From an uncultured delta proteobacterium (lineage in GTDB: Bacteria; Desulfobacterota; Desulfobacteria; Desulfobacterales; Desulfatirhabdiaceae): a stretch of DNA of 64,000 bases. A model generated the notes under the pieces. It searched no databases, was not told the DNA's origin, and saw only the letters and a list, made by a program, of their open reading frames with translations. Below are positions 51,273 through 63,422 of the stretch, piece after piece; positions within the stretch are counted from its first letter, which is position 1, and every line of letters begins with the position of its first letter. A program made the position numbers and the translations under genes. The stretch lies in the NCBI GenBank assembly GCA_963850225.1, contig CAWKLD010000002.1, forward strand, positions 10,107 to 74,106, written 5' to 3'.

Positions 51273-51908
51273 TCATTCCGGTTCAGAAGGTTTTTCCAAC
51301 GCGATATGTGATGGGGAAGATTTTACGCCGATCAGAATGGTTCCCAAGCCCTGTTCATCCAATCCATCGAAATATTGTTTCTTCAGGTAAACGTCACAAG
51401 GCGTGACCGGATTGGAACAGATAATTGTGTGGCAGGCGGCATTATCCTCGGGAATGCGCCAGTCCGCTATAATAGCCGGCGTCTCAAAACAGCATATTTT
51501 CTGCATGATATCCTGGGGAAAATTTATTTTGTCTTTGTAAAAGATAAAATTTTTATGCAGAAACCAGACATCTTTTCGTCCAGACAACTGAGCGATACGG
51601 TCTTTATCACGAATTTCTTCTCCGACTATTTCTCCGTCTTTTTTTACGATTAAAGAAGGTTGACAGCCCTGGCTAAAATCCATATCGGTCAGGGCTGCAT
51701 AAACAGCATCACAATCAAGGACGGCACGAACACCCGTGTTTACAACCTTTCCCAGCCCCATGAGCGAGTTATTCTCCGCATCCTGCTCGATATCCAGGAT
51801 GACCCGGCGATCCCCATCCGACAAGGGACTGGCTTTCACAATACCCTGAATCTTACCCAGCATCTTCAGCACGGCTTCGTTCAGTTTTGTATGATCCATT
51901 TTATTCAT
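51273..51908 (-). CDS. hypothetical protein with Cys-rich C-terminal half
   Basis: 211 aa ORF on the same strand as the methyltransferase island. Cys pattern KICCFETP...AACHTIICSNPVTPC. No family recognised (a DUF3786-like assignment would need an HMM check). Confidence 0.45.
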   Translation of the reverse strand: MNKMDHTKLNEAVLKMLGKIQGIVKASPLSDGDRRVILDIEQDAENNSLMGLGKVVNTGVRAVLDCDAVYAALTDMDFSQGCQPSLIVKKDGEIVGEEIRDKDRIAQLSGRKDVWFLHKNFIFYKDKINFPQDIMQKICCFETPAIIADWRIPEDNAACHTIICSNPVTPCDVYLKKQYFDGLDEQGLGTILIGVKSSPSHIALEKPSEPE

Positions 51909-52038: not shown

Positions 52039-52574
52039 TCAGAAGGGCAGTTTGCCCAATGCCAACAGCCAGAAGGACGGAACCCACAAGCCCACTACGG
52101 TCCAGATGATCAAGGATGCCCCCAGGGCCTTGGCGGAAAACTTTCCATAACCATTGAGCCAGACCATGATATAAAGAACCGTATAACCGGCGCAGGCCAG
52201 GGCCAGGAATTTGCTCTGGCTAATAAGCTGTTTGCCCCCCGGCAGTACCGGACCGCCGTTCAATGCCAGGAACATGTAAACGATTGTTATGGGAACCAAG
52301 TCAGGCTGGCATTGGCCATGGTGCGGGTGTCTTCCAGGCCGGAATACAGGGTGAAGCCTACGATGCTGTAAAACAGGCCATAAGCAAAAAGCAGCGCGGC
52401 TATCCAGGGATCCTTAAAAATCGCTGACTGGATAATCGCAGATACGAGCACCAGGGCACCTACCATACAAACGAGCGCACCCGTTCCCTTGGCCTCGCCC
52501 TTCCCCAGCAGCAGAAGTCCCACAGGAACCCACATAAGACTGATTGCCATCAGTGTCGCCTCAACCATTTTCAT
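52039..52574 (-). pseudogene. AmiS/UreI-like small-solute channel, one frame switch
   Basis: ORFs 52287..52574 and 52039..52299 are collinear, about 175 aa, six TM helices. LLFAYGLFYSIVG and the C-terminal GLWVPSFWLLALG resemble AmiS (LLFAFTYLW..., TAWLPGLLLLG). Recalled similarity, moderate. Confidence 0.5.
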
Positions 52575-52823
52575 ACTCCTTTTTTATATTTTAAGAAAGA
52601 TAAATGGAATAAGCTATATTATCAATTATTAGCATCCATTCCCGAAAGGAATACTTCAAAACCAAACAACAGTCTAGCAAATCATTTTTTTCAAAAGCGC
52701 ATACCGTAAGTCCTGAAACACAATGTCATTCATTTGAAAGGATAGATTGTTGCCATTGAAAGCAATATGGCATTCAACACATGGTGAAATTTTGGCGACT
52801 TCAATTAATTTGGAGGTATGAGA

Positions 52824-53465
52824 TCAGTACAAAGATTCCTTTTTGTTTTTCATAATAAACAGCGGAGCCAGAAAACCGGACACCGGCCCAACCCTTACCT
52901 CCCATCTGGTTAACTGCCGAATCGCGTTTTTCTGCGATTCGGCCAATCCGGGGATGATGAGCGTCTGATGAACGATTTTATTTGCGACCTCGTTATCCTG
53001 CATGGATTTCCAAACATCAATGGCTTTGAACATCCGTTCGTGTACGGCGTTATCTACAGAATATCCATGTGTAAATATCGGCAACAGGTAAGCACGTGAG
53101 TCTGTCTGCTCGAGAATAGTTTGCATAATTTGCACGGTCTGGCGAAAATTGCAGGTGATCAGCAATGGATCATCTGCACCTGGGGAACCAATTTCTATCA
53201 ACCTGCAATCAGCCTGCTCCATCATGATATTATAGGGAATAGGATCTTTATCCAATTTTACGATTGAAGCCATAACGTTGGCAAGATCGGCGGACAGTTC
53301 CGGACATTTGTGCGGCGCCAGTTTTTGAGTTAGAACAGCTTCGGCAAATTCAACACAGTTGTCAAAACCGCAGGCTCCACAATCGATTTCAGGCAAATAG
53401 CTACTGAAATCTTCGGCTTCAGGCGGATAAATACTGGCCATTTCCTGTTCAACGACCATAGGCAT
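52824..53465 (-). CDS. minimal corrinoid/Fe-S protein: CFeSP-type [4Fe-4S] domain fused to an AcsC/HgcA-type corrinoid-binding domain
   Basis: 213 aa, intact. CGACGFDNC-X16-C gives the C-X2-C-X4-C-X16-C spacing of the CFeSP large subunit/RnfB FeS domain. The C-terminal half LLITCNFRQTV...LLPIFTHGYSVDNAVHERMF...HQTLIIPGLAES...WEVRVGPVSGFLAPLFI is collinear with the HgcA/AcsC corrinoid domain. Confidence 0.6.
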   Translation of the reverse strand: MPMVVEQEMASIYPPEAEDFSSYLPEIDCGACGFDNCVEFAEAVLTQKLAPHKCPELSADLANVMASIVKLDKDPIPYNIMMEQADCRLIEIGSPGADDPLLITCNFRQTVQIMQTILEQTDSRAYLLPIFTHGYSVDNAVHERMFKAIDVWKSMQDNEVANKIVHQTLIIPGLAESQKNAIRQLTRWEVRVGPVSGFLAPLFIMKNKKESLY

Positions 53466-53623
53466 TACTCCTTGATGCGATTATCTGGTTCATTTGTTGT
53501 GTAAGGTTTTCCAGTCTGTTTATTAAAGAAAGGATTTCCCGGCAGTGAGACCCAAAATGAATCATCTGTTTTCCCGACAGCCTGTTTACAGACAAAATAC
53601 ATATGCCTTCAGGCTTGTCCGGA

Positions 53624-54196
53624 TCATTCAACGGCGATAAATTTTTTGGCGTCAACTCCGCAATAGGGACATTTTTTCGGTGGCTCATTCTCGACAGTGT
53701 GGCCGCACAACGGGCAGACATGATACACAGTCGTCTGAACGTCAGCCGGATCACGCAATGCTTTTTTAAACAGCTTTGCATGAACCATTTCAATAGACAT
53801 GGCGTACTCCAGGCTGTGCCTGGCATCAAGCGCATTTTCTTCGACTGCATCCCGAATCATTGCAGGATACATTATTTTAAACTCTTCTGTTTCACCATCG
53901 ATCGCAGCCTGGAGATTCTCGGCTGTCGATTTAACGCTGCCACCTGACTCAAGCTGCGCTATGGCAAGGGCTGATTTTTCTTCCGAATTCAGATCGACAA
54001 TGATCTGTTCTTCCGCCTTCAAAACACATTGATGGGATTTCGCATGGACTTTTTCAGCTACCGCCGCTGCTCTAAAAAGGCGTGCCACTCCGGAATATCC
54101 TTCTTTTTCGGCCTGTTTTGCAAAAGCACGATACCGAATGCTTGCGTGAGCCTCTCCGTTCAATGCATGATGAAGATTTTGTGCTGTTTTGCTCAT
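53624..54196 (-). CDS. rubrerythrin
   Basis: 190 aa. Diiron four-helix motifs (EAHASIRY, EKVHAKSH, EFKIMYP, EMVHAKLF) and C-terminal rubredoxin CPLCGH...CPYCG. Confidence 0.9.
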   Translation of the reverse strand: MSKTAQNLHHALNGEAHASIRYRAFAKQAEKEGYSGVARLFRAAAVAEKVHAKSHQCVLKAEEQIIVDLNSEEKSALAIAQLESGGSVKSTAENLQAAIDGETEEFKIMYPAMIRDAVEENALDARHSLEYAMSIEMVHAKLFKKALRDPADVQTTVYHVCPLCGHTVENEPPKKCPYCGVDAKKFIAVE

Positions 54197-54254
54197 TGAA
54201 TCGCTCCTGTAACAAGATTGGGGTTGGTTGGAATCGTCTGATATTTTCCCCTTC

Positions 54255-56037
54255 TCACGGGGAGGTGATCAGCGCGATCAAATCGAACACTTTTTCCTTG
54301 CAGGCTCTTTCACATCTGCGACAGGCCACGCCATCGCAAAGGGCCAGATTAATGGATATTCTATAATTCGCATTTTCCGTTTCCATTTCCAGCGCATTCT
54401 CGGGGCATTCCGCAACGCAGTCTTCACAGCCGATACAGCCGTCAAATCGGCAGGATCGCATGCGTCCGAGATCGGAGACGATTTTCAAGCCCATCTGGCC
54501 GAAATCCGGAATATCTCTTTCAACGGTTTTAATGACTTCCGGACGCCTGGTCACTTCATGGATTTCGGGCAGGCCATATTTTTTCAGAAATTTCTGGTAT
54601 TGCACAAAGGGCATGCCTTCGGTCCAGAAAGACAATTCCAGAATATAGACCTTTTCAAACGTCTTGGAAGCTGCAAACATACAATGATGTTGCCTGAGGT
54701 CATCGGCAACCTTCTTCATATGCCAGAGCGCATCATCCGATTTTACCACATCCCGGGCCATGGCCAGAGATGTGTTGCCAACCTGATAAATTTTTTGAAC
54801 ACCGGAAGGAATCATACCGATTTCCTGGGCTTTTAATAGCATCCACATAGGTACCGGATGCCCCGGAGCAGTAAGCGACTTTGATATCGTTCAAGTCGAT
54901 GCCTGCCTCATGGCATAGCGTGATATGACCGGCCCTGACGGCACCGATCGCCTTGCCGGCCTCCAGCAGGTCTTTTTCGGTAAATTTGATTCCATTTGGT
55001 AGATGAATTTCCGTATCCAGTGTGTTGATGCGGGGAATTTTGATCAACCTGGCTTTCAGACATTGGCTGATCAGTCCGACCACGCCGGTTCCGGTGATTC
55101 CGACGGCCGCGTAATCACCGGTCTCAAGACATCTTCCGGTATTCGGATCGACCGTATCTCCCGAACGGGCATGCATGTCCTGACCGAGAACAAAGGTTTT
55201 CAGTCGTCCTTTTAGGGGTTTGTCGCTGACTGGTCGTGCCGGTTATGCAGCCGTTGGAAGAATTGTGATCGCTCTTATCGCTCATCCTCGAAATAAATTT
55301 TGATTCGGATTCAATCGGCCGGATGTGCGCGAAGAACATCCGGCCAGCGTGACGGTTTCGGGTTCAAATTCGACATCACTGATCGCACCTGGAAGCGCCA
55401 GAAGTCCATCTTCGATATGCTGGCCTTCCAGTGCAGGTCCGGCGGCAGTGGAGCCGGTATAAACCTTTCCGTTTACCAGCAGCGCAATCTCGTTATTGGT
55501 ACCATAGTCCGTTACAACAACAATCTCTTTCTGATCCAGCATGCCGGTTTGAATCATCATGGCCAACGCATCGGCCCCGATTTCATGCCGAACCGCAGGT
55601 GGAATCAGAACATCCACTTCGGGTAACAAATCAAGGCCTGAAATTTCATGCGCTTTTACGATCATGGCATCGCGCTTGGGCGGCACCACGCCCAATGCAT
55701 CCAGTTTTCTTTTGCCGGCATAGGCCAGATCCCTGAATTCAATTTTCTGGAAAAGAGATAGTTGTATGGGATTTCCACATACCGCCACGCGAACGATCTG
55801 ATTTTTTTCTAACCGCAAATTGTCAATCACCTTGTTGACGGCATCCAGTACAATCTGATGGGTTTTCTCCAGACCGATCTCAAGGGCAAAGTGCAGATGG
55901 TCTATTACATTGGCACCGGGAAGAGGATGGCGTGTGGTAACAGCCGTTGACAAAATCATGCCGTTCTGGTCCAGATCCAGAGCCTGTCCGCGAAATCCGC
56001 TGGTGCCTAAATCCAGTGCAATACCGATTTTGCTCAA
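54255..56037 (-). pseudogene. RamA/RACo-type ATP-dependent reductive activase of corrinoid proteins (ASKHA fold plus C-terminal 2x[4Fe-4S] ferredoxin), about three frame switches
   Basis: Pieces 55282..56037, 55124..55339, 54733..55176 and 54255..54848. IALDLGTSGFRGQALD and VVVTDYGTNNEIAL ASKHA motifs. C-terminus CIGCEDCVAECP and CDGVACRRCERAC. The first and third pieces share a frame. The last switch is at T4 54831-54834. Confidence 0.75.
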
Positions 56038-56080
56038 TTGATGTTTTGCTCCTTTATTAATAACCTGTCGGCCGTATCGA

Positions 56081-56305
56081 TCAAGCTTGTGGATCCTTCA
56101 GCAGGCGCCGGCATTTCATACAAATCCAGTTCTCTTCGTCATCGGTCGATATCTGGGGAAAATGACCGTATAAATCATAATGGTCATTTCGAATCCGAGT
56201 CCAGTATTGTTTCACTTCCGTACAGGACAACCGCCTTCCCAAATCGTTTTCCGCGTCCGAATGCCAGCGGCCACATTTTGTACAACTCAGCATGGTCTCG
56301 ATCAA
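56081..56305 (-). CDS. small zinc-ribbon-like protein
   Basis: 70-74 aa (TTG at 56305 or ATG at 56293). CTKCG...(X48)...CMKC pairs of Cys. 43 bp upstream of the activase gene. Weak RBS. Confidence 0.4.
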   Translation of the reverse strand: MIETMLSCTKCGRWHSDAENDLGRRLSCTEVKQYWTRIRNDHYDLYGHFPQISTDDEENWICMKCRRLLKDPQA

Positions 56306-56423
56306 TTCCCGAGAAAAGAACGGTGAACAAATGTCCGATATTCAGAACTTGATGTGGATATTTTTTCGAAATGGCGAATGCAATTCAGTCCGGATTATTG
56401 CATGCTTACGTGATTTTGATCCC

Positions 56424-56454
56424 AAAAAACGCATTCCGGGTTTGACCCGGAATG
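56424..56454 (-). terminator. rho-independent terminator downstream of mtaB
   Basis: CATTCCGGG / CCCGGAATG 9-bp stem (56432-56440 / 56446-56454) with a 5-nt loop, followed on the minus strand by CGTTTTTTGGG (A6 at 56424-56429 on plus). Confidence 0.7.
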
Positions 56455-56464
56455 GCGGTATTTT

Positions 56465-56500
56465 CTGCCGGTTCCCAATCTGGAGCTTGGGAACCGGCAG
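56465..56500. repeat. perfect 14-bp inverted repeat (CTGCCGGTTCCCAA-N8-TTGGGAACCGGCAG)
   Basis: Read directly: arms 56465-56478 and 56487-56500. It lies between the mtaB stop and the terminator. A third 7-bp hairpin sits at 56534-56553. Confidence 0.8.
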
Positions 56501-56553
56501 ATGCGCGGATTATGGCGCAGTTCAACACTTTCGGTCCGTTCAGTCGAACGGAC

Positions 56554-57929
56554 TTAGAGCCCATATGAGCCAGGATTGAATCCCTTGACATTCTTGTATT
56601 TTTTCAGACAATCGTCAATGAATGTACCTTCGTCATCCGGCAGGGCTTCCAGATCTTTCATGGCCTTATTCAAAGCCTCAGTCTCGAGCTTGGTGAGTTT
56701 CATCTTTTTGTCGCCCAGAATGATTTTGCCGGCCTCGATCGCGCCGGCTCTGGCACTGGCATAATTGCTCTTTCCCCGGTTCTGGACAATGGCGTTGCCA
56801 ACTTTCCATGCATTGTCCGGTGCCAGAATCAGACTGTGGGAATCCCGATACATATCGGAGTTGACCAGAATTTCTTTCATCTGCTGCTGATAGCCCAGTT
56901 CGATGGCGGAGTTGAACATGGCGCAGTCGTACCCGAGGATCTCGGCGAAGACCGATGTCGTGGTGGCGCCGAACATGTCATGGTATTCCACGGCCTCGTT
57001 GCTCCACACGTCGGTTACGGCGGCAATGAGGTTGCCCGCCAGGTCGGAATGCGCGCAAGCGCTGGTTTTACCCTCGCAGGAGATGGGAACACCGGCCATG
57101 GCTTTGATGATGGGATCTTCGTATGCACAGTCTTTGGTCGGACCAGTGGCGCCGCATTCGTAGGCCACCAGGGTTCTGGATGCGGCAATGGCACGGGACA
57201 AAGCAGCCATGACTGAGGCACGTCCTTGGATGTCATACCGCCGGCCATGAACATGGCGGTATTGGCCTCGGAGCAGTTAGGTGTCGCCGCCAGGGATGCA
57301 GTTGTTCTTTTTGGCGATAGCGACGATCTGATCCCACATCCACTCCATATCGATGGCGCCCAGTACACCGATACCGAACAGAATCCCCGCGATATCGTTA
57401 CGGATGATGGCATGGTCAAAAACCTCTTTGCCACCCATGGACTCGATGGAAACAATATCTGCATATTTGGCACATTCTTTGAAGGATTCAATGACCTCCG
57501 GGTGTAGTCACTTTGACGCATGTCGACCATATCGGGTTTGCGCAGATCGGCGATGGTAGCGCGATATGCAGCCTTCAATCCATATTTGGACAGGTAATCA
57601 TCCATCTGTTTGGCTGTCTGTGCGGCAATTTCTCCACCCCATTTCGGGTTGTGGGTCATCTGGAAGATATGTTCATTTTCAATCTGCAAAGTTGGATGTC
57701 CGACAATTACCATTCTTTCCAGGGCATCGCCGTTGGCCTTTTCATATTCCCTCAGCAATGTTTTCATGGTCTTTTCACTGCCGGGCCGGGGATGCGGCAC
57801 CACCTCGGGATGTACCAATCCGCCGCCGATTACAATTCCTCTCTTGGTGGTCACGGGATACTTGGCCGTGCCGAACATCATTTCCGCGCCGTCTTTGTAA
57901 GCCATCTTGGTGAGTTTTTTACGTGCCAT
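56554..57929 (-). pseudogene. mtaB: methanol--corrinoid protein Co-methyltransferase (MtaB family), three frame switches
   Basis: Pieces 57929 to about 57500 (frame A), about 57500-57285 (frame B), about 57285-57222 (A), and 57210..56554 (B). Collinear with Methanosarcina MtaB as I recall it: MARKKLTKMAYKDG...TAKYPV, SIESMGGKE, GGDT-CSEANTAMF, GKTSACAHSD, ...KGFNPGSYGL. Zn-ligand positions (Glu, Cys, Cys) are retained. Confidence 0.85.
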
Positions 57930-58092
57930 GTTTGATTCTCCCTTTTTGTTTTTTTGTTATTGAATGATTTCATTTCGGTTGTAACTCTTGGCTTTGATCT
58001 CTGCTGGCTGTTCTATGTCGGTTCTTCCCCCTTTCACGATTTCATGACCCCCAAGATCACGCCATGAACTTAACAGTTTGTAATTGATAGGT

Positions 58093-58108
58093 TGCAATCG
58101 AAGTGCCA
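58093..58108 (-). promoter_or_regulatory. sigma-54 (-24/-12) promoter of mtaB
   Basis: The minus strand reads TGGCACTTCGATTGCA, an exact TGGCAC-N5-TTGCA match, 164 nt upstream of the mtaB ATG and just downstream of the activator gene stop. Confidence 0.75.
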
Positions 58109-58175
58109 CCAGAACCAGTCAATTTGAATACTTTATAACATCACTGATATAGTACAATATAATTTCCAGGACAAA

Positions 58176-59663
58176 TCATGCTGTGTTCGGATGGGATTCC
58201 CAAATGTAACCATCGGTGACAGATCTGCTTGTTAAATGTAACAACCGGTTACATACAGATGATGACAATCCGTATTCCGAAAGCCTCAGATAGAGCAGTC
58301 GCCGCGTAATACCCAGCATTTTTGCCGCTGCCAGTTTATTGCCTTTGGTCAATTCAAGCGTTTTAACCAGCAACTCCTTTTCAACATCCCGAAGCCGAAC
58401 CCCCCCGTCGGGCAGTTGATTAATCATGCCCGTGGACTGAATTTCCATGCCAGTTTTCCGGCTCACTTCTTCCGGAAGGTCCTGAATGGTGATTTCTCCA
58501 TTTGAACAGGTCACCAGAAGCCGTTCTACAATATTGGCCAACTCCCGCACATTGCCCGGATAGCCGTAGCACATCAAAAGGTCTTTGACTTCTTCGGTCA
58601 GGACCGGTACTGCCAGATCCATTTCTTTTGCATAAACTTCCAGAAAATGATTCAGCAGCAGGGGAATGTCTTCCTTCCTGTCTCTCAACGGCGGGATAGT
58701 GATGGGTACGACATTGAGACGATAGAACAGATCATCTCGGAAATATCCCGATTTTACATCTTTTTTCAAATCCTGGCTGGTAGCTGCAATAATCCGCACA
58801 TCGGTTTTGATGGTGGCATTGCCTCCAACCCGCTGAAATTCTTTTTCCTGGAGTATTCTGAGCAGCTTGACCTGAAGCGCCTTGTCCAGTTCGCCGATTT
58901 CATCCAGAAACAAGGTGCCACCACTGGCAATTTCAAATTTGCCTTTACGCTGCTGCATCGCCGTGGTGAAGGCGCCGCGCTCGTGGCCGAACAGTTCGCT
59001 TTCCATCAGACTGGCTGGGATGGCGCCGCAGTTGATCGCAACAAAAGGAAAGTTTCTGCGAGTGCTGGTCTGACAGATCGTTCGGGCAATCAACTCTTTG
59101 CCCGTACCGCTTTCACCCTGAATCAAAACAGTGGCCGATGTAGGTTTCAATTTTTCGATCAGTCGATAAATGTCGTTAATGCCCCGGCTTTTACCGATAA
59201 TCACCCCAAAACGCTGTCTGGGTTCATCGGGTTTGACTGCCGTTTCTGATGACGATCTTTTCGTCCCCATTTTTTGGGCGATTCCCATCAGAATCGTGTT
59301 GAGACTGTGTTTGAGGCCCGGGCCTGAGTATTCATAAAACCCGCCGCCCTGGTATAAAAAAGGACCCATCGGACCGGTAATCAGAATCGCGGCATCGGGC
59401 GCAATTCGCCTGGCCTGTTGAAAAAAACCGCCGCCACCCATTTCCGAGGATTTAATGTCGATGATAATGATGGATACCGTTTTTGAATGACTGTTCAGTA
59501 CGGCCAGTCCCTGATGCTCATCCGCCACCCACAGCGGATCGAAGTCCTTTGAAGAAATAAACCGCGACAGAGACTGAAATGCCCGATACCGGTCATCGAC
59601 AATCAGAACCAGCGGCTTATCGCCTTTTGTCGGTCTGAACGTTTTTTCTTCTGAACTTATCAT
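58176..59663 (-). CDS. sigma-54-dependent response regulator (NtrC-type: receiver, AAA+, Fis HTH)
   Basis: 495 aa. Receiver LVLIVDD...[11 protein letters not shown]+ [11 protein letters not shown] and the GAFTTA (GAFTGA variant) loop. C-terminal [19 protein letters not shown]. Start overlaps the cobW-like stop (ATGA at 59660-59663). Confidence 0.85.
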
Positions 59664-60788
59664 TTGTTAAGCCTGCACTCCTGCTCGGACCCTTGTCGCA
59701 CTGACAAGGAATACGGATCATTGATTACGGCTTTCACTGCCGCCTGCCCGTTTGAGCGGCACTGCTGAAATGCCTTCTCGATCATCTCCCGGTTCAGGCT
59801 TTTGCCGATAACGGACACCTTGCTTTGGTTAAATGGCCGGATCGGCTGAATGGACACATCGCCGGAAGCCAGCTCCAGCACCTTCCAGGCAGTCTCTGTT
59901 CGGAATATTCCCTTGGCGCGAACGATTTCACCGTATCCGGACTGTGCGTCTGTCATCCGATGAAAAAGGCTTTCCAGGGAAAGCAGATCAAACCCGCTGT
60001 CGGCAAATACAAGGCCGAAGGATTCATAGCCCAAGGCGTCCGCAGTCTTTGTCAAAATGGGGCTGCGATCCGGCATCTTCCGGATGATCGAGTATTGTAA
60101 CCACCGGTCCTTTGCCGTTATTGGCTTTCGGCTGAACAGACGCTTTCCGGTGGCTGTCCGAATGTGTCGTTTTGTCACGATCAAGTTTGAATCCGGAACC
60201 AACAGACAGGGCGGCGTGATACTCGCTCCAGTTGATGGCTCCGAATTCGGTCATGAATACCGTCAGTTCGGGATTGATCGCGGAGATGGCGGACTGGATC
60301 ACCATGGCCTTTCGCTGATCTACCCGGTCACATTTGTTCAACATGATGATATGAGCGTTTTCCACCTGGGATTCGACAAAATGCCGGTTGGCCCGATACA
60401 GCCCCATGAAACCGGTGGCATCGGCAATCAGTATTTTGTGAATTCGGCTGATTTCCCGCTCGAACAACTGCGCTTCGAGAATCCACTGAATTTGCCCGAT
60501 TGTGGCGACCCCAGTGGGTTCTATGATGATTCTGTCCGGCTTTATGGTGCGGCTGATTTCCAGAATCTGAGCCCGAAAATCAGCCTGAAGCGTACAGCAG
60601 ATGCATCCGCTGGGCATTTCGACCACATTGCCGCCTTGTGATGACAGAAGCTCGCCATCGATACCTACATCACCAAATTCATTCACCAACACCACGATTT
60701 TTTCATCAGAATCCCATTCACGAAGGATTCGCGTGATAAACGTAGTTTTGCCGGAGCCTAAAAATCCAAAAATCACATCAACAATCAT
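59660..60788 (-). pseudogene. CobW/HypB/UreG-family (G3E) GTPase, one frame switch
   Basis: ORFs 60024..60851 and 59660..60202 are collinear. Likely start is ATG 60788 (MIVDVIFGFLGSGKTTF). CXCC motif GCICCT, NKCD, His-containing linker, and CobW_C-like tail (GYESFGLVF...VRAKGIF). Switch somewhere in 60050-60200. Confidence 0.8.
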
Positions 60789-61082
60789 CTTCGATACACT
60801 TTCCTGGTACACGGTGAAAGTTGTTAACGGATAGAAATAAACCTGAACCATGAAAATGCGATGTTCATCCGCCCTCTGAAGTCAACTTCTTATTCCGGTT
60901 CATATTCAAACTGACAGCTTTGTCAGCTTCGCAGCGATGAATTACGACGTACTGAAAAAGTGCAGTAATCATCGCTGCTCGTTTGGTTTCGCGGTCTCGC
61001 CTGAATGCTTGCCGGAACGTCATTTTTGAAACAAAATGAAATCACAACAAAAAAGAATTAAACGATTCGCCATCAGATCCTG

Positions 61083-61829
61083 TTAACCGTTCCACTTGCT
61101 TCGCAAAGATTCCCATTTTTCGCCGGCCAACGCATCTTCTGCCATGCCCGGCGCCTGGCTTGCTTCCTTGCCATATACGCCAAGATCGTAACTTGTCACA
61201 TATTCCTCGCAAACCGCACCGCCGCCGCAGATAAAGGGAATTTGAATGCCGGCGGCTTTGAGCTGATGCGCGATTTTGGGAAATGCCGTCATGGTGGTGG
61301 TCATCAGAGCGGTCCCGGTAACCATCACGGGACGATGCTCTTTACATGCCGCTACCACCTTGTCAACCGGCACATCGGCACCCAGATCAATTACCTCGAA
61401 TCCATTGGCGTTAAGCAGGGCATTAACAATCACCTGACCGATGTCATGAATATCGCCTTCGGCCGTATGGGTAACGACTTTGCCTTTTCTATCCATGGAT
61501 TTGCCCATGGCCTTCTCGCACTTGGCAATGCCGATATTCATCGCATCCGAAGAGAGAATGACCTGGGGCAGGAAATATACGCCTTCTTCCCACAGTCGGC
61601 TCACCTCGTTCATGCCGGCAATAAGTGCATCGTTAATGATGTCGAGCGGTGTTTTTGTTTTCAGGGCCTTATCCACGGCAGGGGCAATTCCATCTTCATC
61701 CCCGTCCACCACGAATTTTGCGATACTTTGCAGAATGGGATCTTTGGAAACCTGTTTGGCTTGTCCAACTTTTTCGAGGTCAAGATCGTAACGTTTAAAA
61801 ATGTTTGAGAAATCATTCAAAATTTTCAT
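61083..61829 (-). CDS. mtaC: methyltransferase cognate corrinoid protein (MtaC-type, B12-binding)
   Basis: In-frame ATG 61829 within ORF 61083..61889, preceded by GGAAAGGAG. N-terminal helical cap domain, then B12 motif GDIHDIGQ (DxHxxG), ...VMVTGTALMTTT..., GGGAV. Confidence 0.85.
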   Translation of the reverse strand: MKILNDFSNIFKRYDLDLEKVGQAKQVSKDPILQSIAKFVVDGDEDGIAPAVDKALKTKTPLDIINDALIAGMNEVSRLWEEGVYFLPQVILSSDAMNIGIAKCEKAMGKSMDRKGKVVTHTAEGDIHDIGQVIVNALLNANGFEVIDLGADVPVDKVVAACKEHRPVMVTGTALMTTTMTAFPKIAHQLKAAGIQIPFICGGGAVCEEYVTSYDLGVYGKEASQAPGMAEDALAGEKWESLRSKWNG

Positions 61830-61911
61830 AATAAAACTCCTTTCCTCATTTAAAAGTTTATTAAAATGGCTCCGGCAGGAACCACGCACATCCCTTGTTT
61901 GGAAATAACGG

Positions 61912-62913
61912 CTAATGCGCCTTGGCTACCTCCAGCATGGCCAGAAGGTTTTCCATTGGCGTACCCGGTGCAACGGCGCACCCCGGTGCCAGCATCTGGA
62001 TTCCGTCTGCGATGGATTCCTCGCTTCCGGCTCTGACCGTTGCGGCATCTTTCATAAAAAGTGTGGTGGCGGTATCCACACCGCCCATTAAAATGATATC
62101 CGGCCCGCATTTTTCCCGGGCCAATTGAGCGCTGGCTTTCGGCTCCAGACTCAGTATCTCTGCACCGGTTTGCCCCATCCAGGCAACAATGTTATCCACA
62201 TTGCCGCAGATATGCAGAATTTTAGGCACCATGATTCCTTCGAACTGGGCGGTTTGATAGTCCATCTCATAGTCCCTGTAAGTTTTTGGTGCAATCAGGT
62301 CCGGCGAAGCAGTCATGTCCTCACAGGAAATCATATCGGCTCCGGCCTCGACCAGGGCCTGGGCAAGCATATTGCCGGCTCTTTGTCCGATCTCCAGAAA
62401 CGGCCGCATTTTCTCCGGCGTCTTGAAGCTGGCCTTGAGCAGGGGAACCGTGTCGACCAGGGCGCCGGCGATGGTGAAGGGGCCGATGATCCCGCCGATA
62501 ATGAGCACTTCGTCTTTCAGCTCCTTTTTTAAAATGCGGACCGCTTTCAGCAATTCCGGAATCCTGCCGCGCGAGAGAAAATCCTTTGGAAATATCGGCG
62601 TATCATTCAGGGTATAGGGAGATGGGTGTGCAATTCCGGGAATTCCCTCTGTACCGCCGGATTTGACCCCGCATCCAAGGGCCTCGGCTTCAAATGTCTG
62701 GCAGAAAGGGACTCTTACCGCATCAAAACCGACGACGGTATAGGCGGCCAGGGCCTGTTTGGCCATGTCTTCACCTTTTTCGTGACCGCTGGGCCAGAAG
62801 GCCTGAACCTTTTCCATTTGCTCGTAGGTGACCGTGGAATTGGCACAAAAACAAGGCATACGGTCGGGTTTCTGGTGGTTTAACACTGCCATCACGCGTT
62901 CTTTGGCATTCAT
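61912..62913 (-). CDS. mtaA: methylcobamide methyltransferase of the uroporphyrinogen decarboxylase (URO-D/MtaA) family
   Basis: 333 aa. MNAKERVMAVLNHQKPDRMP start. Zn motif HICGN (H-x-C) plus the downstream Cys in LAPGCAV. RBS AGGAGG. First gene behind the riboswitch. The methyl acceptor (THF versus other) is not deducible. Confidence 0.8.
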   Translation of the reverse strand: MNAKERVMAVLNHQKPDRMPCFCANSTVTYEQMEKVQAFWPSGHEKGEDMAKQALAAYTVVGFDAVRVPFCQTFEAEALGCGVKSGGTEGIPGIAHPSPYTLNDTPIFPKDFLSRGRIPELLKAVRILKKELKDEVLIIGGIIGPFTIAGALVDTVPLLKASFKTPEKMRPFLEIGQRAGNMLAQALVEAGADMISCEDMTASPDLIAPKTYRDYEMDYQTAQFEGIMVPKILHICGNVDNIVAWMGQTGAEILSLEPKASAQLAREKCGPDIILMGGVDTATTLFMKDAATVRAGSEESIADGIQMLAPGCAVAPGTPMENLLAMLEVAKAH

Positions 62914-63100: not shown

Positions 63101-63130
63101 AAAAATGCGCTCTTTACCCTCGAAAGAGAG
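63101..63130 (-). terminator. possible attenuator hairpin of the riboswitch expression platform
   Basis: CTCTTT / AAAGAG 6-bp stem (63110-63115 / 63123-63128) followed on the minus strand by CGCATTTTT. Weak, AT-rich stem. Confidence 0.3.
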
Positions 63131-63142
63131 GCATCACGACAT

Positions 63143-63336
63143 GAGCAGGTATCCTGACTTGCGGCCCGAGCGGACTCTTTTCGCCTTTAGCCAGTAAACT
63201 ATATCGAAGGCCTGTGACAGAGTCCGTTCTTCGAGGATTCGATCTCAAACAGAAAACGCCTCGAAGCATTCCTTAAGGAACGCGCGTCGCTTACAGTTGC
63301 GGGGCAGTGACGGATTTACACCATCTTCCCTGCTAT
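63143..63336 (-). promoter_or_regulatory. cobalamin (B12) riboswitch in the mtaA-mtaC leader
   Basis: The minus strand reads AGCAGGGAAGAUGGUGUAAAUCCGUCACUGCCCCGCAACUGUAAGCG ... ACUGGCUAAAGGCG ... GCAAGUCAGGAUACCUGCU. These are the conserved GGGAA/GGUG.AA.UCC/CCCGC.ACUGUAA core, the B12 box AGUCAGGAUACCUGC, and P1 closing AGCAGG/CCUGCU. Confidence 0.8.
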
Positions 63337-63349
63337 AAAAACTAATTTG

Positions 63350-63391
63350 AAATCATTGATTATAAATCAATATAAATATAAATCATTGATT
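63350..63391. repeat. two copies of palindromic 12-mer AAATCATTGATT, 30 bp apart, just downstream of the sigma-54 promoter
   Basis: Copies at 63350-63361 and 63380-63391. The AATCA-T-TGATT core is self-complementary. A degenerate AAATCAAT lies in between. Confidence 0.5.
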
Positions 63392-63406: not shown

Positions 63407-63422
63407 TGCAATAAAAATGCCA
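63407..63422 (-). promoter_or_regulatory. sigma-54 (-24/-12) promoter of the mtaA-mtaC-cobW-regulator operon
   Basis: The minus strand reads TGGCATTTTTATTGCA (TGGCAT-N5-TTGCA). It lies about 60 nt upstream of the riboswitch aptamer and about 490 nt upstream of the mtaA ATG. Confidence 0.7.

Follow-up and report, generated by a model that had tools for sequence, protein, structure and literature searches.

A short, soluble protein related to corrinoid/iron-sulfur protein, encoded in a methanol methyltransferase locus and, among its relatives, in ars operons

The minus strand of the DNA analysed here (hereafter, the window: 64,000 nucleotides of contig CAWKLD010000002.1, from an uncultured delta proteobacterium) carries a locus in which a cobalamin riboswitch is followed by mtaA-mtaC-cobW, a gene for a sigma-54-dependent activator, mtaB, ramA, a rubrerythrin gene, the gene that is the subject of this study, a gene for an AmiS/UreI-like membrane protein and a gene for a conserved protein, unk211 (Table 1). 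The gene of interest is an intact open reading frame (ORF) of 213 codons. A first-pass annotation had described its product as a minimal form of corrinoid/iron-sulfur protein (CFeSP), in which the [4Fe-4S] domain of the CFeSP large subunit (AcsC) is fused straight to the corrinoid-binding Rossmann domain shared by AcsC and the mercury methylase HgcA. Sequence comparison and structure prediction confirm this description, and the protein has neither the TIM barrel of AcsC nor the membrane domain of HgcA. It belongs, as a real and intact member, to an uncharacterised family whose domain architecture is a new variant among the CFeSP/HgcA-type corrinoid proteins. The same annotation had placed the gene beside a classical mtaC; the two do belong to one locus, which holds two unrelated corrinoid folds (PF02310 plus PF02607 in MtaC), but they are 7.6 kb apart, and it is the rubrerythrin and AmiS/UreI-like genes that directly adjoin the gene studied here.

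The family, which we refer to as mini-CFeSP, is defined here by a length of about 200 to 218 residues, by the presence of PF04060 together with only the C-terminal part of PF03599, and by two motifs, PIPYNxMMEQ in the linker and T-H-G-Y-S-V-D-N-A in the cap helix; the window protein has all of these features, and a protein 100% identical to it is found in public data (P0001). Translation probably starts at Met3 (nucleotide 53459), which would give a product of 211 residues, because an AAGGAG box lies 8 nucleotides 5' of Met3, a spacing suited to a Shine-Dalgarno sequence, and only 2 nucleotides 5' of Met1, and because the N-termini of the homologues read MVVEQEMA in a 20-sequence alignment. 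No convincing sigma-54 or sigma-70 promoter or terminator specific to the gene was found, the number of pattern matches being that expected from shuffled sequence.

PF04060 (FeS) covers residues 24 to 55 (E = 7e-11), and C29, C32, C37 and C54, invariant in the 20-sequence alignment of the close family, have exactly the spacing C-X2-C-X4-C-X16-C that had been read from the sequence at first. PF03599 covers residues 86 to 194 (E = 1e-16), the match being confined to positions 269 to 377 of the 387 positions of the profile. Among NCBIfam models, the best match is to the AcsC/CdhE gamma subunit (NF003195; 110.2 bits, cut-off 306), with residues 86 to 209 on model positions 325 to 448 of 450; the runners-up are the HgcAB-like fusion (NF043039; 69.7 bits, cut-off 285, positions 16 to 140 of 350) and then HgcA (NF040863; residues 89 to 208, 38.8 bits, cut-off 275). 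In sequence searches of the PDB, CFeSP large subunits were the sole matches to the C-terminal half. A profile of the short family aligned to the CFeSP chain 2h9a_A with E = 3e-41, the Fe-S domain on residues 5 to 57 and the corrinoid domain with its preceding strand on residues 312 to 444; the TIM barrel (about residues 58 to 311) has no counterpart and, by this alignment, is precisely excised. No transmembrane segment was detected (maximum Kyte-Doolittle mean over 19 residues, 0.89), and neither PF02310 nor PF02607, the signatures of MtaC/MetH-type B12-binding proteins, matched at E ≤ 1 in Pfam. The strings that had been quoted as evidence of collinearity with the corrinoid domain are all present in the translation: LLITCNF at residues 101 to 107, THGYSVDNAVHERMF at 132 to 146, HQTLIIPGLAES at 166 to 177 and WEVRVGPVSGFLAPLFI at 188 to 204.

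An AlphaFold2 model computed from 20 homologues was confident, with a predicted local distance difference test score (pLDDT) of 86.4 and a predicted template modelling score (pTM) of 0.83; its sole low-confidence stretch, residues 138 to 143, lies in the cap helix. In a Foldseek search of the PDB the model returned six matches at E ≤ 1e-3, five of them CFeSP large-subunit chains and the sixth a model of HgcA (9a0b_A). The C-terminal domain superposed with a root-mean-square deviation of 2.7 Å over 120 columns on 4djd_C and of 2.6 Å over 127 columns on 9a0b_A.

The invariant positions of the close family include, besides the cysteines, the linker PIPYNxMMEQ, T104-x-N106-F-x-x-T110, T132-(H)-G-(Y)-S-V-D-N139-A, P172-G-L-A175 and W188...G193-P194. 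When the window protein was aligned with two AcsC, two HgcA-like proteins and two divergent short forms, 13 residues were kept across the three architectures (T104, N106, T110, L127, T132, G134, A140, H166, L169, P172, T186, G193 and P194). In a modelling study of HgcAB, Thr60, Thr66, Val91 and Ala153 of HgcA contact B12 and are conserved with CFeSP, and Cys93 is the cobalt ligand (PMC7305189); the role that we assign to the cap helix is taken from this study and from PMC13331322. By motif position and spacing, T104, T110, V137 and N139 of the window protein would correspond to Thr60, Thr66, Val91 and Cys93 of HgcA. The cap signature of HgcA, N(V/I)WCA(A/G)GK, is replaced by SVDNAVHE, in agreement with the first-pass annotation, and N139, invariant in the close family, occupies the column of the CFeSP Thr and of HgcA Cys93. 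In this column, which lies under the cobalt, AcsC has Thr or Val, HgcA has Cys and the clade of the window protein has Asn; in other short clades, a nearly invariant Asp is always followed by Cys, His, Ser or Met. The corrinoid site of the window protein looks intact, with a distinctive axial environment. Neither H142 nor H133 was retained as a candidate cobalt ligand, since close homologues have A, P or Y in place of the former and, in one case, Q in place of the latter.

The corrinoid of CFeSP alternates between the Co(I) and CH3-Co(III) states, reductive reactivation is the only task of the [4Fe-4S] cluster, and the uphill reduction of the corrinoid is driven by ASKHA ATPases of the RACo/RamA type. 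To our knowledge, CFeSP was for a long time the only protein in which a corrinoid domain of the CFeSP type was known; HgcA followed and, lately, some radical-SAM (S-adenosylmethionine) enzymes. The best-scoring known family for the window protein is the CFeSP large subunit (AcsC/CdhE; PDB 2H9A, 2YCL, 4DJD, 4C1N and 9FZY), with which it shares the N-terminal [4Fe-4S] domain with identical cysteine spacing and the C-terminal base-off corrinoid Rossmann domain with its cap helix (32% identity to 4djd_C). It differs from CFeSP in the absence of the central TIM barrel of about 250 residues (213 residues in total against about 445), in the Asn that takes the place of Thr under the cobalt and in its family-specific linker. 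It also differs in its surroundings: no acsD, acsB or acsE, and thus no gene for the AcsD partner, for acetyl-CoA synthase (ACS) or for the methyltransferase MeTr, is found within about 10 kb of the gene, the window contains no second AcsC-like sequence, and mini-CFeSP genes occur in methyltransferase or ars loci and not in Wood-Ljungdahl operons, the exception being the proximity of acsCD in two loci (L025 and L028). Three features thus set the protein apart from CFeSP: it lacks the TIM barrel, falls short of the equivalog score and has no Wood-Ljungdahl genes around it.

With HgcA and HgcB, the window protein has in common a CFeSP-type corrinoid domain that operates outside the acetyl-CoA pathway along with an Fe-S module, and a recurrent association with ArsR/ars genes (see below). 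Unlike HgcA, it has no five-helix C-terminal membrane domain, the chain ending at the Rossmann domain, and it has neither the cap motif nor the Cys ligand; unlike HgcB, a separate dicluster ferredoxin with a Cys-Cys tail, its Fe-S module is a fused, single-cluster domain of the CFeSP type, and no ferredoxin of the hgcB kind (two [4Fe-4S] clusters and a Cys-Cys tail) adjoins the gene. The HgcAB-like fusions also have a corrinoid domain and an Fe-S module on one polypeptide, but only their corrinoid part is matched. Proteins of the MtaC/MetH type (PF02310 plus PF02607) are likely functional analogues, being small, soluble corrinoid methyl carriers that undergo RamA-type reactivation, but they bind B12 in an unrelated fold with a His-on ligand (DxHxxG) and lack an Fe-S cluster. 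The CFeSP-like Rossmann domain and cap helix are also reused by the Mmp10/DUF512 class 2 cobalamin-dependent radical SAM enzymes (PMC13331322), which differ from the window protein in carrying the domain on a radical-SAM core and in having Leu under the cobalt; no sequence match of the window protein to these enzymes was found. The protein thus works most like CFeSP and HgcA but belongs to neither group.

When 5.8 billion proteins were searched with the single sequence, 258 clusters (90% identity) were retrieved. Among the matches listed (120 of the 258 clusters), all are 198 to 216 residues long, all have both Pfam domains, and their identity to the window protein is 58 to 100%; these relatives derive mostly from metagenome-assembled genomes (MAGs) of Desulfobacterales/Desulfobacteraceae. 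Their database names are 'hypothetical', '(Fe-S)-binding protein' and 'CO dehydrogenase/acetyl-CoA synthase gamma subunit', of which the last is wrong for members of this family and can create a false impression of Wood-Ljungdahl capacity when metabolism is reconstructed from MAGs. Exhaustive scanning of 1.84 billion representatives with HMMER gave 327 matches; about two dozen clusters (50% identity) keep the architecture, with 196 to 218 residues and identities down to 24%, and the remaining matches are AcsC proteins of 410 to 480 residues and a few HgcA-like proteins. Members with names in the distant short clusters are from Methanomassiliicoccales, Dehalococcoidia and Promethearchaeota (Asgard archaea). 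A profile search recovered 501 clusters, including a large sister clade of about 208 residues in Thermodesulfobacteriota and Nitrospirota. The short architecture is thus found in hundreds of clusters from several phyla, mainly Desulfobacterota, and we found for it neither a family name nor a curated model; literature searches for the architecture, or for an ars-linked soluble corrinoid protein, returned no description. The ratio of nonsynonymous to synonymous substitution rates (dN/dS) between the gene in the window and its two closest relatives (L006 and L007) is 0.13 to 0.14, and the gene is under purifying selection.

We collected 30 distinct loci, onto which reference proteins were mapped by tblastn. 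A neighbour-joining tree, in which all relatives are at least 52% identical to the window protein and have the same invariant motifs, sorts them by genomic context, with the subclade of the window protein separate. The methanol arrangement is common to six loci (the window, L006, L007, L030, L002 and L028), with MtaB at 82 to 90% identity, RamA and, mostly, rubrerythrin and/or unk211; seven other loci (L009, L011, L015, L023, L008, L025 and L031) have corrinoid neighbourhoods of other kinds. A Pfam census of 114 ORFs neighbouring the gene in 12 non-ars loci other than the window recorded RACo/RamA (8), DUF2284 (8), CdhD (6), DUF1638 (5), MtaB (4), AP_endonuc_2 (4), URO-D (3), B12-binding (3), CobW (3) and CobT (2). 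The CdhD entries are acsC and other PF03599 genes of L025 and L028, where a full-length AcsC of 449 residues (L025, 926-2275; L028, 6162-7511) lies 3.9 kb from the short form, divergent, with the further PF03599 genes alongside; long and short forms thus coexist in one genome. Cobalamin riboswitches are present in the window, L007 and L008, but never immediately 5' of the mini-CFeSP gene, those of the methanol-type loci preceding mtaA or other genes; none was found in the nine ars-type loci scanned.

Resistance to arsenic is the dominant genomic context of the family. In 15 of the 30 loci the gene is inside an ars operon, usually 11 to 47 bp from its same-strand neighbours, and in two more (L026 and L027) ars genes are 4 to 8 kb from the short CFeSP gene. 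A typical order is ArsR, a permease of the ArsP_1 family, a thioredoxin-like protein of the MTH895/ArsE family, the mini-CFeSP, a DGC protein, an Fe-S-only protein and ACR3. The corresponding census, restricted to 137 same-strand ORFs in 15 of these loci, counted Thioredoxin_3 (12), DGC (11), ArsP_1 (8), ArsR (HTH_5; 8), FeS (8), SBF/ACR3 (7), ArsC of the low-molecular-weight phosphatase (LMWP) type (3) and SAM methyltransferases (3). MtaC-type or other corrinoid proteins, RamA and cobamide-biosynthesis genes are absent from the ars-type operons, and ars genes are absent from the window locus. Neither the large conserved family nor its ars-dominated context had been foreseen in the first-pass annotation, which had proposed a survey of proteins of this length and their neighbours; the ars context was the unexpected result.

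The Fe-S-only protein (173 to 206 residues) accompanies the mini-CFeSP in L004 (11156-11695) and in 12 other ars-type loci. It consists of an unassigned N-terminal domain of about 115 residues, with PYLN and GG..Y motifs, and a C-terminal [4Fe-4S] domain of the CFeSP type; in a profile-profile comparison with the mini-CFeSP family, nothing aligned beyond this Fe-S domain. The protein is a possible HgcB-like partner. The idea that these operons lack ArsM, which the mini-CFeSP would then replace, was rejected as a general rule, since methyltransferases with the hallmarks of ArsM (Cys pairs and a VLDLGSGAGFD motif) are encoded within 5 kb in at least L021 (7752-8582) and L029 (2583-3407). In the sister clade, which has the cap motif TVDMA with Met under the cobalt, the gene is translationally coupled to folC, whose stop codon it overlaps, and follows purH in two of four loci (L032 and L033; 6731-8627), which hints at a housekeeping role of that clade in folate/one-carbon metabolism.

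We lean, with modest confidence, towards the interpretation that mini-CFeSP carries or transfers methyl groups on a corrinoid as a self-contained protein, with a reactivation cluster built in; this interpretation builds on the observed architecture, fold and conservation of cofactor motifs, on the size of the family, on purifying selection and on the two recurrent genomic contexts. The coupling of the sister clade to folate one-carbon genes also speaks for it, and HgcA, which is methylated by SAM and passes the methyl group on without a separate methyltransferase (PMC11588087), illustrates that the domain can act in this way. The protein would be a soluble single chain, with the [4Fe-4S] domain tethered by the short conserved linker to the base-off corrinoid Rossmann domain, and would bind a single [4Fe-4S] cluster and a single corrinoid, whose cobalt would lie above Asn139 of the cap helix. 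The corrinoid would cycle between Co(I) and CH3-Co(III), and the cluster, itself non-catalytic, would bring Co(II) formed by accidental oxidation back to Co(I), as in CFeSP. Re-reduction would be assisted by an ATP-dependent activase of the RACE/RamA type in corrinoid-methyltransferase loci, and by the co-encoded Fe-S-only partner in ars-type operons. The copy in the window most likely handles methyl groups in, or beside, the methanol methyltransferase system.

Several points weigh against this interpretation. In CFeSP, shielding of the corrinoid and docking of partners depend on the small subunit and the TIM barrels, of which no equivalent is encoded nearby; in the ars-type operons, no methyltransferase partner is conserved. 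The methanol locus has a complete MtaABC set, which leaves a second carrier without an obvious step. The model is poorly predicted only at the cap helix, and the residue under the cobalt, Asn here and N, C, H, S or M in the wider short family, suggests that the chemistry may differ from that of CFeSP. Moreover, the reading frames of several neighbouring genes are broken in the window, which may mean that this copy of the locus is decaying or that the assembly contains indels.

The broken frames, at least five among the neighbours of the gene, could also be taken as a sign that the locus is decaying and that the gene itself is a pseudogene of a full-length acsC or what a deletion has left of it. 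We consider this effectively refuted by the survey of the family, in which the architecture of 205 to 215 residues recurs across phyla, and by the dN/dS of 0.13; the linker motif is, in addition, family-specific and invariant, and L025 and L028 hold a full-length AcsC besides the short form. A descendant of CFeSP that has lost the corrinoid and acts as a small Fe-S redox or regulatory protein would fit the axial residue, which is unlike that of CFeSP and HgcA, the low confidence of the cap helix and the NCBI label, merely '(Fe-S)-binding protein'. However, the loop motifs of the corrinoid site are the most conserved parts across the three architectures, and the non-ars neighbourhoods are overwhelmingly corrinoid-related, and we judge such a descendant very improbable. 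Greater weight, while still unlikely, has an accessory function, in which the protein would relay electrons to the RamA/RACE activase or act as a chaperone that keeps a base-off corrinoid reduced for the loading of MtaC-type proteins; the first-pass annotation had named these two functions besides that of a methyl carrier. A RACE activase is present in 8 of the 12 non-ars loci, whose neighbourhoods also include CobW, CobT, CobA, a BtuF-like binding protein and AP_endonuc_2 (a TIM barrel of the xylose isomerase-like kind) as well as cobalamin riboswitches, and direct neighbours include redox-protective proteins (rubrerythrin, a flavodiiron protein and thioredoxin-like proteins). Yet RamA has two [4Fe-4S] clusters of its own, and relatives with 58 to 66% identity and the same invariant motifs reside in ars operons that encode neither RamA nor MtaC-type proteins nor cobamide biosynthesis, with no riboswitch in those scanned. 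A purely accessory role to MtaC/RamA is disfavoured because more than half of the close relatives are in ars operons without another corrinoid protein or RamA, and an autonomous corrinoid function appears favoured over a helper role because mini-CFeSP is the sole corrinoid-type protein there.

A further explanation, rather doubtful in our view, would make the protein a soluble counterpart of HgcA, transferring methyl groups onto or off arsenic independently of ArsM and ArsI. In the direction of methylation, CH3-Co(III) would react with As(III) to give methylarsenic, exported by the ArsP-type permease; in the reverse direction, Co(I) would attack methyl-As(V), a demethylation that would require neither oxygen nor ArsI, and As(III) would leave through ACR3. 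The partners would be the ArsE-like thioredoxin, the DGC protein, the Fe-S-only protein as electron donor in the role of HgcB, the ArsP-type permease and ACR3, and the window copy would belong to a paralogous subclade recruited to the methanol system, or would link methanol-derived methyl groups to metalloids. The 15 loci in ars operons and the two near ars genes, with their ars-rich same-strand census, are consistent with such a function; ACR3 passes the cut-off of the TIGR00832 equivalog with a score of 461 bits, and the ArsM-like genes of L021 and L029 imply that methyl-arsenic chemistry occurs there. The hgcAB pair is itself linked to ArsR and flanked by ars genes, a linkage that is unexplained (PMC7438021; bioRxiv 10.1101/2022.10.17.512643) and that the tight ars linkage of mini-CFeSP in sulfate reducers parallels, and anaerobic arsenic demethylation, for which no enzyme is known, has been linked to corrinoid methyltransferases (bioRxiv 10.64898/2026.08.27.747368). 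Against this, the support comes from gene context, the window locus is free of ars genes and its subclade is separate in the tree, the permease is a member of PF03773 that scores below every NCBIfam cut-off, a second methylase is unneeded where ArsM is present, and the Cys ligand of HgcA, essential for mercury methylation, is replaced by Asn.

As a self-contained methyl carrier, mini-CFeSP would give an old B12 fold a third architecture, soluble, free-standing and equipped with a reactivation cluster of its own; its small size, about 24 kDa against the 90 kDa of the heterodimer, makes it tractable as a model of base-off corrinoid chemistry. The ars context makes a link between corrinoids and arsenic experimentally testable; if the arsenic explanation were true, mini-CFeSP would be a candidate for the enzyme by which anaerobes methylate or demethylate arsenic independently of ArsM and ArsI, and would hint at the ancestral role of the HgcA lineage, prior to mercury.

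In the remainder of the window locus, mtaA, mtaC, the activator gene and the rubrerythrin gene are intact, as is the mini-CFeSP gene, and at least five frame breaks relative to the intact orthologues of L007 span 52039-60851 (-). They are found in cobW (at about 60040), in mtaB (about 57498), in ramA (about 56090 and about 54830) and in the AmiS/UreI-like gene (about 52300); ramA also has an out-of-frame stretch with stops at 55284 and 55245. A B12 riboswitch ahead of genes for B12-dependent methyltransferases is an unusual arrangement. The sigma-54 motif TGGCACTTCGATTGCA, between the activator gene and mtaB, is the sole zero-mismatch case of 34 matches with at most two mismatches, the total of 34 being that expected after shuffling; it suggests that genes for methanol methyltransferase are under the control of an activator in a Desulfobacteraceae MAG.

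Table 1. Features of the mini-CFeSP gene and of the surrounding methanol methyltransferase locus (positions in the window)
Feature	Position	Strand	Basis and remarks
mini-CFeSP gene	52824..53465	-	ORF; Pfam FeS and C-terminal part of CdhD
CFeSP-type [4Fe-4S] domain, residues 24-55	53301..53396	-	PF04060; aligned to 2h9a_A residues 5-57
Linker in place of TIM barrel, with (D)PIPYNxMMEQ	53211..53300	-	Invariants P75-Q84; no counterpart to CFeSP 58-311
CFeSP/HgcA-type corrinoid-binding Rossmann domain, residues 86-213	52827..53210	-	PF03599; 4djd_C residues 322-432; Foldseek
Cap-helix region, T132-H-G-Y-S-V-D-N139-A...K147	53025..53072	-	Alignments; weakest part of the AlphaFold2 model
Candidate sigma-54 box, one mismatch	63407-63422	-	Pattern search; upstream of the riboswitch
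Cobalamin riboswitch, mtaA-mtaC-cobW leader	63127-63361	-	RF00174, 57.9 bits, E = 9e-12; also in L007 (431-697)
mtaA, methylcobamide methyltransferase (URO-D fold)	61912..62913	-	PF01208; NF004889, 302 bits, cut-off 244
mtaC, classical His-on B12-binding corrinoid protein	61083..61889	-	PF02607 and PF02310; NCBIfam MtaC, 282 bits, below equivalog cut-off
cobW, CobW-family GTPase	59660..60851	-	Frameshifted here; 356 residues, intact, in L007
Sigma-54-dependent transcriptional activator	58176..59663	-	Translation; homologues with Sigma54_activat/HTH_8
Perfect sigma-54 -24/-12 match, TGGCACTTCGATTGCA	58093..58108	-	Intergenic, activator gene to mtaB
mtaB, methanol:corrinoid methyltransferase	56554..57929	-	PF12176 in two ORFs; one frameshift near 57498
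RamA/RACo-type reductive activase, N-terminal Zn-ribbon and C-terminal 2x[4Fe-4S]	54255..56305	-	Raco_middle, RACo_C_ter, Fer4; frame disrupted
Rubrerythrin, directly 5' of mini-CFeSP, same strand	53624..54196	-	Pfam; kept in the window, L006, L007 and L030
AmiS/UreI-like small membrane protein, directly 3' of mini-CFeSP	52039..52574	-	Weak PF02293, below Pfam cut-off; frameshifted, 176 residues, intact, in L007
unk211, conserved protein	51273..51908	-	Co-located with mini-CFeSP and mtaB/ramA in methanol-type loci

The AmiS/UreI-like gene is also directly 3' of the mini-CFeSP gene in L007 (10724-11254) and in L030, and its product could form a channel that passes a small polar solute, methanol for example. 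No match to unk211 was found in Pfam, in NCBIfam or among PDB sequences and folds, which leaves no clue to its function; it has 314 homologues, including one in Desulfospira joergensenii, the family being of about 195 residues, and its AlphaFold2 model is confident (pLDDT of 84). The N-terminal domain of the activase is read in the window as a Zn-ribbon ORF of 74 residues with two CxxC pairs (56081-56305, -), unlike that of RACo, which is a [2Fe-2S] domain. In L007 (7204-9378), Zn-ribbon and activase form one intact ORF of 724 residues.

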